Origin: a virus | Lineage: Duplodnaviria; Caudoviricetes | Virus record (IMG/VR): IMGVR_UViG_3300027740_000038 | Coordinates: 1 to 45,809 of that record | Reading direction: 5' to 3' (one strand) | Length of the DNA stretch: 45,809 nt | Part shown: positions 1 through 45,789 of the stretch, in pieces | How positions within the stretch are numbered: the first letter of the stretch is position 1 | How the letters are laid out: every line of letters starts with the position of its first letter | Program-made: the position numbers and the translations under genes | The notes under the pieces: generated by a model | Databases searched by the model: none | Told to the model about the DNA's origin: nothing | What the model saw: the letters and a program-made list of their open reading frames with translations, nothing else

Positions 1-126
1 CAATACTGGCAAGCGATATGGGAGCTAAGACGGTCGCGGACTCATTCCATTACTGGCGATTATTTTTTCAAAACTCAACAATAGGACGTAATGCACGCTT
101 CTTCGCTGAGTACAAAAAAAAAAAAA
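1..126. repeat. Terminal direct repeat copy 1 (circular-assembly overlap)
   Basis: 1-126 is identical to 45664-45789; the sequence then ends in a poly-A run. Confidence 0.95.
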
Positions 127-19227: not shown

Positions 19228-20160
19228 ATGGGTAATTTTTGGAGTGATTTCGGTACTAATTTAGGCATGGACAGCGGACATGCTCAAAATCGTAGAAATG
19301 CTGAATATCGACAGCAATTAGAACAAGCCCGTTCAGACATTTCATCTGGTTATGATACAGCAGGAGAGCAACTTACCACGGGCATGAATACAGCTATGGA
19401 TACCGCCAGAAGCGGATTCAATCAAGCAAGGCAAGATACCTCTACCGGATACGGAACGGCGCAGAATCAACTTACAACTGGCATGAATACTGCCGTTGAT
19501 ACCGCACGAGAAGGATATAAAACCGCTCAGGGCCGATATGAAACTGAACCTATGGTAACTTCTCGTGCTGAACTCACTCAGCGCGCCCTCGGAAAAGGTG
19601 GATATGATGAAGGTACGCTCAATGCCATGAAAGCAGGGACACGAGAAGAATATGGGACTTCGGCCAGAGACCTTGAAAAGTCCCTCAAAACCTATTATGG
19701 TGATTCTTCCGCGCAAGGGCTGGCAGGGGAGAATTTAGCCCGTGGTATGACTACATTGGGCGAAAAACGCGCCGGGGACGTTCGTGATATTGATATATCC
19801 AATGCACAATTAATCGAACAGCAACAGACGGATGCAATTACGGCACTTAATACAGAAGCATACCAAAGAGCGGGACTTGATGCTGATGAAGCACAACTTG
19901 TTTCCGGGTTACAGCGTGATTTGGCAACAGGAACGGCTCAACTTACGGCACAACAGACCAACATGCTTGCTGATTTGGCTGCACGTGAAGGAACAACGTT
20001 AGCAGAACTTCAGGGTAGACTTGCGACAGGTCAAGCAGCGCTTACCTCAGAAGAAGCGCAGGCATTGGCCGAAATTGAGGCAGCAGGAGCAACAGGCACA
20101 TATACAGTCGGTTCTCAGAGGAATTTATTACAAGGAATATGGGGCGGTTCTGGTTCTTAA
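19228..20160 (+). CDS. Putative DNA ejection (internal virion) protein
   Basis: Ala/Gln/Thr-rich helical sequence with an internal 33-aa repeat (QLTTGMNTA.DTAR). Confidence 0.65.
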   Translation: MGNFWSDFGTNLGMDSGHAQNRRNAEYRQQLEQARSDISSGYDTAGEQLTTGMNTAMDTARSGFNQARQDTSTGYGTAQNQLTTGMNTAVDTAREGYKTAQGRYETEPMVTSRAELTQRALGKGGYDEGTLNAMKAGTREEYGTSARDLEKSLKTYYGDSSAQGLAGENLARGMTTLGEKRAGDVRDIDISNAQLIEQQQTDAITALNTEAYQRAGLDADEAQLVSGLQRDLATGTAQLTAQQTNMLADLAAREGTTLAELQGRLATGQAALTSEEAQALAEIEAAGATGTYTVGSQRNLLQGIWGGSGS

Positions 20161-24747: not shown

Positions 24748-24835
24748 TCTGCGTTTGCGTTATTCGGATGCGCAACCCCCGTTACTACATTTGAGAGTAC
24801 GGTTTACCCGCAAATTCCATTTGGCATCACCTCCT

Positions 24836-24998
24836 CAACACCACATTACTATACTGCACCTCACTTTTGCTGTACAGGACGATACGTTACCTTCACCAAA
24901 CTGACCTGACTGCACCTTACAGTTGCTGTACAAGACGATACATTGCCATTGCCCCACCCTGCTTTACATTACCCTTACCTTACAGTACTCTACCTTTA
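24836..24998 (-). ncRNA. Pentamer-periodic (NGY-NN)n array; putative guide-like RNA of the adjacent RAMP gene
   Basis: Minus strand reads GGT AG AGT AC TGT AA GGT AAG GGT AA TGT AA AGC AG GGT GG GGC AAT GGC AA TGT AT CGT CT TGT AC AGC AAC TGT AA GGT GC AGT CA GGT C AGT TT GGT GAA GGT AA CGT AT CGT CC TGT AC AGC AAA AGT GA GGT GC AGT AT AGT AA TGT GG TGT TG; stop codons early in all three minus frames. Confidence 0.8.
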
Positions 24999-25574
24999 CT
25001 AAACAGTACTGAACTTGAAACGACCAAATGAACCATTACGGAATTGCCCTAAACCTTGTAACTCACCATATTGCAGCAATTCATTAATAACATTATCTGT
25101 AATTTCTTTATGCTCCAAAATCTTGATTATAAAATCCAGTTCAAGTCCTGCCTCGATATAGTCGCTACGCACCAATGATACACGTGGCCCCTGCATAGTC
25201 ATTGCTTGTAACGGTCGCTCAAAAACTCCATCGGGTTTCTGTTTACCGAAATATATTTTTCTCGGCATGACAAAAACATAGTTTTGAATCTTTGCACGCG
25301 CATTTTTAATTTTGAGTGAATCCTTTAAAACATTCGCGGCATTTTTCAAAAATCCCTTAACAAGATAGTCATAAACAAACAATCCGTTTTCATCTTTATG
25401 AAATCCCGTCCATCCGCGTTCCTCAATTTCCTGTACAGTGGCAATTTCTTCTGTATTGTTTTGTTCCGTGGTTTTATTGCCGATATATGTTGCGTAAACC
25501 GTCTTGTCTTTTGGAACTGTCCCAAGCAACCGTTCTGTTAATTTGATTTTAACTGCAATGTCATGGGTGTTCAT
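24999..25574 (-). CDS. Stand-alone Cas7/RAMP-like protein (191 aa)
   Basis: N-terminal beta strand VKIKLTERLLG, VKGFLKNAA helix (RAMP 'lKG.lr' motif), C-terminal Gly-rich loop GLGQFRNGSFGRF; RBS AAGGAG. Confidence 0.78.
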   Translation of the reverse strand: MNTHDIAVKIKLTERLLGTVPKDKTVYATYIGNKTTEQNNTEEIATVQEIEERGWTGFHKDENGLFVYDYLVKGFLKNAANVLKDSLKIKNARAKIQNYVFVMPRKIYFGKQKPDGVFERPLQAMTMQGPRVSLVRSDYIEAGLELDFIIKILEHKEITDNVINELLQYGELQGLGQFRNGSFGRFKFSTV

Positions 25575-25614
25575 TTTATCTCCTTATTTCGCCTCCGTCT
25601 GCATATTACCTCCT

Positions 25615-25656
25615 CAACAAGGGATTTGAGGGGACACGCCCCTCAATCCCGTGTTG
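25615..25656 (+). repeat. attC-like site
   Basis: CAAC-AAGGG-ATTTGAGG-GGACACGCC-CCTCAAT-CCCGT-GTTG (core, 5 nt, 8-nt box, loop, 7-nt box, 5 nt, core). Confidence 0.75.
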
Positions 25657-25731
25657 GACGGTGTAAGTTGAGATTTGCATGTTGGACACATATGCCAAGT
25701 GCTTCCGTGCTCACAGTACATTGGGCATCAC

Positions 25732-33221: not shown

Positions 33222-33269
33222 CTTACGGCCTCCTTTCAATTCACCCTCATCATATTATTCTCCTAAATT

Positions 33270-33342
33270 TAGCGGGTTGCGAAATTGAATCGCATTTTTT
33301 CGGCTTATGGGGCCGACTGAGATAACCAACCTCCCACCCGCA
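33270..33342 (-). tRNA. tRNA-Met(CAT)-like, initiator-like but atypical
   Basis: Acceptor GCGGGT/ACCCGC with 1:72 mismatch, D stem GAG/CTC, anticodon stem TCGGC/GCCGA with loop CCCATAA, T stem TGCGA/TCGCA with loop TTCAATT; no encoded CCA. Confidence 0.7.
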
Positions 33343-33362
33343 AAGATTTATTTACCTTTTTT

Positions 33363-33404
33363 CAACTTGGGATTTGAAGGGACAAGCCCCTCAATCCCGC
33401 GTTA
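33363..33404 (+). repeat. attC-like site, near-identical to 25615-25656
   Basis: CAAC-TTGGG-ATTTGAAG-GGACAAGCC-CCTCAAT-CCCGC-GTTA. Confidence 0.75.
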
Positions 33405-33945: not shown

Positions 33946-33974
33946 GAGGGGACACGCCCCTCAATCCCGCGTTA
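33946..33974 (+). repeat. Partial third copy of the 25615/33363 element
   Basis: GAGGGGACACGCCCCTCAATCCCGCGTTA. Confidence 0.7.
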
Positions 33975-39876: not shown

Positions 39877-40479
39877 TTATTTTTCCTCTCTCATCACCTG
39901 CTCTAATATCGCAGATAGATTTATCGTTCCTGCTGCTGCCCATTCCCATGCTGCCTGTGCTGCCTTTGCTGCCCATTCTGCTGCCCGTGCTGCCCCTGCT
40001 GCCTCTGCTGCTGCTGCCCGTGCTGCATCTGCTACTGCCCATGCTGCCTCTGCTGCTGCCCATGCTGCCCATGCTGCCTGTGCTGTCCTATCTTTCCCGC
40101 TGAGCCAATTATTTGCCCATTCCACCCACTTAGCGTCTGTGTACACCAATTTGGTGCACAGAATTCCCGCTCGCACCTTTTGTGCTGTTGTCATTTCCGG
40201 GAGGGGAATTTTGCGCAACAGGCGGGCGCGTTTTGTGCCGCCCTTCAGCCCATCATGTGCCACACTGCTGTCTATTTCCATTTCCCATAATTTGGGATTG
40301 GAAATATTGGCATGGATGGGATTCAAAAACACCGCCGTCAATGGCGTATCGTAGTAATGGATTACTTCGTTCGTACAGAGCGTATTACCGGGTATGTCTA
40401 TGCTCTGCCATTCGTTTACCGTCCACAGAAATTCATTATGGGTCTGATTTTTTTCATCAGTCAATTTATATTTTATCAT
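39877..40479 (-). CDS. Phage protein with C-terminal AAWAA low-complexity repeats
   Basis: YKLTD...LC...IHYY..PL.A...NPIHA; GCA/GCATGG repeats at ~39950-40085. Confidence 0.75.
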   Translation of the reverse strand: MIKYKLTDEKNQTHNEFLWTVNEWQSIDIPGNTLCTNEVIHYYDTPLTAVFLNPIHANISNPKLWEMEIDSSVAHDGLKGGTKRARLLRKIPLPEMTTAQKVRAGILCTKLVYTDAKWVEWANNWLSGKDRTAQAAWAAWAAAEAAWAVADAARAAAAEAAGAARAAEWAAKAAQAAWEWAAAGTINLSAILEQVMREEK

Positions 40480-45663: not shown

Positions 45664-45789
45664 CAATACTGGCAAGCGATATGGGAGCTAAGACGGTCGC
45701 GGACTCATTCCATTACTGGCGATTATTTTTTCAAAACTCAACAATAGGACGTAATGCACGCTTCTTCGCTGAGTACAAAAAAAAAAAAA
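45664..45789. repeat. Terminal direct repeat copy 2
   Basis: Identical to 1-126. Confidence 0.95.

Follow-up and report, generated by a model that had tools for sequence, protein, structure and literature searches.

A probable VIPR system with a block-structured pentamer array in a tailed-phage genome

The vipr locus and its genomic context

The locus described here consists of a gene for a 191-aa protein, designated vipr, and an array of five-base units that adjoins the 3' end of this gene on the same strand (Table 1). It lies in a window (the whole stretch of DNA analyzed, 45,809 nt, positions 1 to 45,809 of virus record IMGVR_UViG_3300027740_000038) that represents a tailed-phage genome, encoding a terminase, a portal protein, a major head protein, an endolysin, an O-like replication protein and two methyltransferases. 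The vipr gene is the last in a leftward run of early genes; next to the array lie the late genes, in convergent orientation. The record is classed as linear with an estimated completeness of 47%; despite this estimate it is probably a complete circle, as indicated by an exact terminal repeat of 126 nt (window 1-126 and 45664-45789) that is followed by an A-run. An ISL3-family transposase is located inside the phage (43536-44705, minus strand), and a low-complexity repeat with a 9-nt unit, probably a coding repeat, extends across several ORFs at 39930-40092.

In agreement with the preliminary description, which had found no other cas gene and no repeat-spacer array, the window contains no match to PF03787 and no CRISPR-type repeat family, and none of the 30 window ORFs scanned against PADLOC matched a cas gene. 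BLASTN of the locus against phages returned short chance pieces only, and a scan for promoters and terminators at the locus remained at chance level. A GC-rich hairpin (z -4.55) occurs three times in the early region (25614-25655, 33362-33403 and 33946-33973), with one copy just upstream of vipr and one beside the tRNA-Met gene (33269-33343); it may be akin to the hairpins at insertion-sequence ends. The upstream copy was rejected as a part of the system, given the two further copies elsewhere in the phage and an upstream fold z of -2 or below in just 12 of 46 homologs. A 35-aa Cys/His-rich ORF with a ribosome-binding-like site is also present upstream of vipr (25614-25721, minus strand).

Table 1. 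Features of the vipr locus (positions in the window).
Feature	Position	Strand	Basis
Shine-Dalgarno-like AAGGAG, 5 nt before the ATG	25580..25585	-	Sequence
vipr, stand-alone RAMP of the Vipr family, 191 aa	24999..25574	-	Profile-profile comparison with SUSP1 Vipr family; RAMP-led PDB matches
T19, aligned to SUSP1 H17 (first-G reader in SUSP1)	25518..25520	-	Profile alignment
G-loop codons, residues 174-186 (Q177, F178, R179 = SUSP1 D177, W178, R179)	25017..25055	-	Alignment
Three units, in register, within the final vipr codons	25001..25015	-	Sequence parsing
NGY-NN (YNNNG) array, 32 units, candidate vrRNA array, begins within the stop codon	24836..25000	-	
Block 1, 4 units, GG start, 6-nt unit at end	24974..24994	-	
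Block 2, 5 units, GG start; anecdotal match in L063	24948..24973	-	
Block 3, 5 units, GG start; paralog of block 5	24922..24947	-	
Block 4, 6 units (one of 4 nt), TG start; partial paralog of block 6	24892..24921	-	
Block 5, 5 units, GG start	24866..24891	-	
Block 6, 6 units, AG start, without closing 6-nt unit	24836..24865	-	

The Vipr-like protein

The preliminary description had recognized a 191-aa ORF with RAMP motifs, and both of the motifs named, VKGFLKNAA and GLGQFRNGSFGRF, are present in it. Its assignment as a Cas7/RAMP-like protein holds for the RAMP part, which is borne out by profile searches, while these searches place the protein with Vipr rather than with CRISPR Cas7. Two alignments were used: A1, built from 120 listed among 380 close homologs, and A2, built from the query, 11 close homologs and 120 of 150 listed clusters (2278 in total at 50% identity). 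The A2 profile aligned end to end with a profile of the SUSP1 Vipr family over 171 columns (probability 96.0%, E 3.8e-9), as against E 0.11 for a reversed control, and a second comparison of this kind gave a similar result (probability 95.2%, E 2.5e-8, 172 columns). With a cut-off of E<0.01, an HMM of the SUSP1 family picked out 212 of the 270 proteins of the clade. In profile searches of the PDB, all seven matches of A1 were RAMPs, as were the top 8 of 14 for A2, with SUSP1 Vipr at E 0.43 and 0.018, respectively; Csm4 and one Cas7 outscored SUSP1 Vipr in these searches through the G-loop alone. The fold-family comparison proposed earlier, run here by profiles, thus yielded a full-length match to SUSP1 Vipr and RAMPs at the head of the PDB matches. 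The G-loop is clear by sequence; column confidence of the SUSP1 Vipr alignment is low outside it (~19–23% identity), and the counterpart of the SUSP1 thumb residue R138 is ambiguous. Taken together, the comparisons support the 191-aa protein as a distant full-length homolog of SUSP1 Vipr.

By the available text of the SUSP1 structure report, G1 of each repeat is read by H17 and D177, G2 by W178 and R138, and Y3 by R179 (10.64898/2026.04.26.720927). The Y3 reader R179 is invariant in both families (109/109 SUSP1-family proteins, 132/132 of this clade), and residue 178 is aromatic in both (129/132 in this clade). The two readers of the first G are exchanged: H17, found in 99/109 SUSP1-family proteins, is T or S in 129/132 members of this clade, and D177, found in 95/109, is Q in 125/132.

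The clade is large, with 2278 clusters at E<=0.001 (50% identity) and 535 at E<=1e-30. The 191-aa protein had no match among the curated families of Pfam, PHROGs and PADLOC, and NCBIfam gave just weak Csm4 matches, in 10 of 132 members. A single-sequence search of the PDB returned one irrelevant match, and the ESM Atlas matches were unnamed viral clusters with no structure model. No longer or fused form of a Vipr-like protein was found, which is weak evidence.

The pentamer array

The array measures 165 nt and comprises 25 units of 5 nt, six of 6 nt and one of 4 nt. GY pairs recur at a lag of 5 nt 24 times, compared with 7.0 ± 2.2 (maximum 16) in 5000 dinucleotide shuffles, and the chain score of the array is 22 compared with a maximum of 10; neither the score nor the lag-5 count was reached in any of the 5000 shuffles. 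It is the sole pentamer chain of its kind in the window, where the next best score is 5.5. The earlier account of a 5-nt-periodic array starting from the stop codon is therefore upheld in its period and its 32 units, although the 6-nt units, which had been called occasional, are regular: one occurs every 4–6 units, and four of the six blocks that they delimit start with GG. Likewise, of the NGY anchor proposed earlier, GY is fixed and the first base is free. Among the 25 five-nt units the first base is T in 8, G in 7, A in 7 and C in 3, and the third base is T in 23 and C in 2. The relaxed first base noted previously agrees with YNNNG, an alternative repeat named in 10.64898/2026.04.26.720920. 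A 39-nt stretch is duplicated within the array at a spacing of 56 nt, with blocks 3-4 copied as blocks 5-6.

The region 3' of block 6 holds a ribosome-binding-like site and an 11-codon ORF directly after the array (24785-24820, minus strand). The GAGGAGGT repeats at the array end and upstream were considered as a tail and rejected, being ribosome-binding-like sites. No structured tail was found after the window array (fold z +0.6), and Rfam gave no match, including no hammerhead ribozyme, at the window locus. No array variants were detected in DNA contigs from sequencing runs, one of which gives partial coverage.

Array linkage and block structure among homologs

A set of 141 homolog loci was reduced to 121 unique loci; the metagenome scan contributed 80 of its 221 loci. 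A same-strand array adjoins the gene in 88 of the 94 unique loci with enough flank, the window locus included, or in 87 of the 93 others, compared with 0 of 269 distant control windows. The downstream periodicity that the preliminary description predicted for homologs is thus widespread, with arrays downstream of the gene at 69 of the 88 loci, upstream at 10 and on both sides at 9. In 43 of 94 downstream arrays the array starts before the end of the stop codon. No neighbor gene family recurs in more than 5 of the 121 loci, and no vap1 accessory gene was found among them. There is likewise no sign of a conserved 3' tail: 330 pairs from 45 of 58 tails scored 12.85 compared with 12.8 after shuffling, and the median fold z of the 3' tails across the clade is -0.21. 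Rfam ribozymes were absent from the 15 sources scanned, 14 of which were homolog loci.

Block statistics were collected from 82 loci at >=50% identity (5312 units), with the window locus left out. The parser fixes G2 and Y3, so their conservation is no result. The 5312 units include 950 of 6 nt, and 732 of the 840 spacings between them span 4–7 units, where ~263 would be expected after shuffling; the modal spacings of 5 and 6 units account for 520 of the 840. Directly after a 6-nt unit, the first base is G in 91% of 930 units, as compared with 24–28% at the positions that follow, and it is G in 41% of 4150 clade units overall. Run through the same parser, 88 SUSP1-type loci gave mostly chains of 8–15 units with a first G in 85%, and 30 six-nt versus 1606 five-nt units. 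The layout seen here, with an extra base every 4–7 units, probably corresponds to the published "staggered" arrays, a comparison made through the legend of Fig. S18 of 10.64898/2026.04.26.720920.

Array segments are common to different phages at differing positions (L053/L098, L108/L135, L034/L110/L113, L043/L081 and L093/L102), and in a few independent pairs (L043/L081 and L093/L102) single blocks with their junctions are common to otherwise different arrays. At the sequence level these shared segments suggest an exchange of modules between phages.

Statistics of the variable dinucleotides

The code carried by the NN positions was examined in 2571 mid-block units from 95 loci, after nine near-duplicate, self-duplicated or own loci had been dropped. 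With an r of 0.86, NN frequencies follow those that phage ORFs show at sense codon positions 1-2, compared with 0.15, -0.01, 0.09, 0.40 and -0.78 for the other five frames, and all 1000 locus bootstraps ranked sense positions 1-2 first. With base composition removed the correlation is 0.88, the next best being 0.73 for antisense positions 1-2. These figures lend statistical support to the earlier suggestion that NN is the specificity code, and the codon signal could in part reflect a purine preference at N4. A sense-strand bias special to this clade was rejected, as type II loci, run as a control, share the tendency to a lesser degree (raw r 0.57–0.71, residual 0.14–0.53). A guide in sense orientation would imply a DNA rather than an mRNA target. 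Third-codon-base behavior was not seen for the first base, which scores -752 compared with a null of -865 ± 73 (z 1.5) and +186 for pure codons. The first and last units of blocks, both of them A-biased, have entropies of 3.12 and 3.41 bits versus 3.85.

Target searches

The preliminary description had proposed searching phage and host genomes with the NN dinucleotides. Such searches, covering up to 1.7 Mb of DNA from phages and metagenomes, yielded no excess over controls under any rule, in sets that are small and may miss true targets. No enrichment was seen for 492 blocks against 576 kb or for 866 blocks against 1.72 Mb. In the 576-kb set, 7-unit blocks read as triplets gave 21 sites versus 8 at <=3 mismatches, which was not reproduced as perfect matches, and perfect matches under the triplet rule showed no excess overall (15 versus 9.3 expected). 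Among close relatives, the triplet rule gave 11 versus 9.7 matches at 70–90% identity and 41 versus 29.4 at 62–70%, with no general excess, and 9-unit windows across block junctions showed none against 2172 ORFs. For 241 blocks from 20 phage records, matches to the phage itself equaled controls under four rules. The published VIPR systems are also without self-targets (10.64898/2026.04.26.720920). The choice of rival phages as targets would be drawn from those published systems, not from this locus.

One match was noticed after the fact. Under the triplet rule, block 2 matches 14 of 14 bases at L063:67-80, the sole perfect site in 3.8 Mb (both strands counted). L063 is the locus of the closest Vipr (77%), and the Markov expectation for a 14/14 match there is 1.3e-4. 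The site is the purine-rich ribosome-binding site of a 125-aa gene, ~1 kb upstream of vipr, and the match is anecdotal, a lead only. The gene order at L063 is the 125-aa gene, an NYN-domain gene and vipr, in a layout like that of the window, with vipr and its array facing lysis-type genes.

Relation to published VIPR systems

VIPR systems consist of a Vipr RAMP and vrRNAs built of GGY/NN units, in which the NN bases pair with DNA and one base is skipped, usually at the wobble position; NNNGG, YNNNG and NNNNG are listed as alternative repeats, and 1-nt "staggered" arrays are mentioned (10.64898/2026.04.26.720920, including methods and legends to Figs S17–S18). As judged from its sequence, the window combines family-level features of VIPR, namely Vipr homology, a minimal cas-free phage locus, an adjacent pentamer array and no self-targeting, and we consider it likely that the locus is a phage VIPR system. 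The resemblance to VIPR that had been pointed out in the preliminary description was well founded, given the distant full-length Vipr homology, the arrays at homologs and the YNNNG repeat listed by the VIPR authors.

The closest counterparts are the YNNNG and staggered systems of 10.64898/2026.04.26.720920, which share with the window a small phage-borne RAMP, a pentamer array beside the gene, the YNNNG repeat, 1-nt register shifts and the lack of self-targets. The repeat and the staggering are at least named in print. For such systems the available text is silent on block size, junction motifs, residue swaps and any test of the code; the residue swap, block statistics and codon signature reported here were not found in the available VIPR preprint texts. 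Type II systems, represented by Escherichia phage SUSP1 (Vipr YP_009199429.1, PDB 36pp) and a P. fulva prophage, have a homologous protein of the same size, and SUSP1 is alike in the aromatic residue and Arg of the G-loop, in the GY/NN period of 5 and in NN positions that best fit sense codon positions 1-2. In contrast, the window Vipr is only ~20% identical to that of SUSP1, with T and Q in place of H17 and D177; its array has a first G in 7 of 25 units compared with 85%, and thus no strict GGY anchor, and forms one continuous array of 4–7-unit blocks where SUSP1 has separate vrRNAs of 9–16 units. The conserved structured 3' tail and the vap gene, both type II features, are absent from the window, which is therefore not type II. 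It is perhaps type I, as the text of 10.64898/2026.04.26.720920 assigns vap genes to types II–VII; unlike the ribozyme arrays of types I and V, in which hammerhead ribozymes lie between the vrRNAs, the window locus has no such ribozyme in Rfam. By the available preprint texts, targeting was tested for type II only.

Non-canonical arrays of the form WGT/NN, TGH/NN and GAC/NN (10.64898/2026.10.21.760802) are alike in having a degenerate fixed trimer beside a Vipr-like fold, but the available text names no fully free first base or block punctuation, and the array caller described there keeps exact 5-nt runs only. The class 1 CRISPR RAMPs Cas7, Csm3 and Csm4 share the G-loop motif, and polymerization on a guide would be expected by homology to them; their similarity to the window protein is confined to the last ~50 residues, and the window differs from class 1 CRISPR-Cas in its 5-nt unit and in having no cas operon or repeat-spacer array.

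Alternative explanations

A reading of the array as a microsatellite without function, or as a coding repeat of low complexity, draws on its internal duplication and on an antisense frame that stays open across it (54-aa ORF). Its periods of 5 and ~26 nt misfit codons, its units agree at only two of five bases, and the clade shares a junction motif; in homologs the array may stand upstream of the gene, downstream of it or on both sides, on the strand of the gene. This linkage refutes the reading as far as sequence can, and its probability is negligible. A solo Cas7-like anti-CRISPR or decoy, in which protein and RNA would jam a host class 1 complex without any DNA target, is very improbable: the G-loop resembles Csm4 and Cas7 more than SUSP1 Vipr in HMM searches and no targets were found, yet the protein aligns over its full length with the Vipr family, the period is 5 nt and not the 6-nt step of Cas7, and codon-like variable positions imply sequence-specific targets.

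A more substantial alternative, which we nevertheless regard as unlikely, treats the array as one long guide or scaffold in which the extra base punctuates each turn while the filament continues. The modal spacings coincide with the subunit numbers per turn, 5 and 6, given for the SUSP1 filament in the available part of 10.64898/2026.04.26.720927, single blocks are short on information (the ~10 NN bases of a 5-unit block are thin for a stand-alone guide), and the window has a joint duplication of blocks 3 and 4 as well as two blocks, 4 and 6, that do not start with GG. Against this, spacings range from 4 to 8 within single arrays, single blocks and their junctions recur in otherwise different arrays (in few cases), and nine-unit windows across junctions show no excess matches. 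In addition, arrays staggered by 1 nt are separate processed vrRNAs according to the legend of Fig. S18 (10.64898/2026.04.26.720920), and a six-unit footprint of 18 bp is given for SUSP1 vrRNA4 in the available text of 10.64898/2026.10.15.759431. The same system could also use another code, with the first base pairing with or copying the skipped base so that each unit specifies three contiguous target bases. Such a triplet code would explain the block 2 match, and across the GY that lies between them in the RNA, the first base and N4 have a weak dinucleotide bias of the kind found between adjacent bases in DNA (r 0.49, z 2.6, one of 24 tests), where N5 and the next N4 show none (r 0.03). We consider it improbable: the first base ignores third-codon-position rules and stop triplets occur, perfect matches are not in excess overall or in close relatives, and the L063 match, spotted post hoc, falls on a ribosome-binding site rich in purines. 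The first base also diverges faster in shared segments, with 13/152 changes versus 8 and 5, in pairs that are not independent. A one-base skip with a free first base is favored, because NN match codon positions 1-2 and the first base is unlike a third codon base.

Proposed mechanism and implications

By analogy with the SUSP1 structures, Vipr would polymerize on the array transcript with one subunit per five-base unit. The protein would likely grip GY, so that NN could pair with a DNA target at codon positions 1-2, skipping the third base, and the complex of Vipr and guide would, by the same analogy, silence rival phages' genes. As no accessory nuclease is present, one would expect repression and not cutting. 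The T/S and Q residues in place of H17 and D177 fit the free first base and may be what frees it; such a parallel loss, of the residues that read the first G and of the conservation of that G, would make a direct and testable case of protein-RNA co-variation. The extra base and the GG unit after it may mark the start of a short guide module of 4–7 units, replacing the type II 3' tail. If the blocks are separate guides, one short array encodes a multiplexed set of very short guides.

More speculatively, the clade may use tail-less mini-guides of 4–7 units that are swapped as modules and whose first base was copied from the skipped base of the target, a copy now fading; we think this doubtful as a whole. 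It would mean that guides are written by copying the target, with GY inserted after every third base. Were this copying to occur, it would open a way to study how new guides are acquired by VIPR; a first base that recorded the target would bear on that acquisition, which the available VIPR preprint texts leave unexplained. On this reading, the target of block 2 would be a ribosome-binding site in the closest relative, belonging to the first of the two genes that precede its own vipr.

Among programmable DNA-binding systems VIPR is very compact, and it has been proposed as the ancestor of class 1 CRISPR. The present clade appears simpler yet, having one protein and neither an accessory gene nor a tail. 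Pentamer arrays also occur as orphans far from vipr, at L150:13864-14007 (minus strand) and 19499-19612 (plus strand) and at L183:2090-2176; L022, a locus on the same record as L150, carries ~470 units around its gene.
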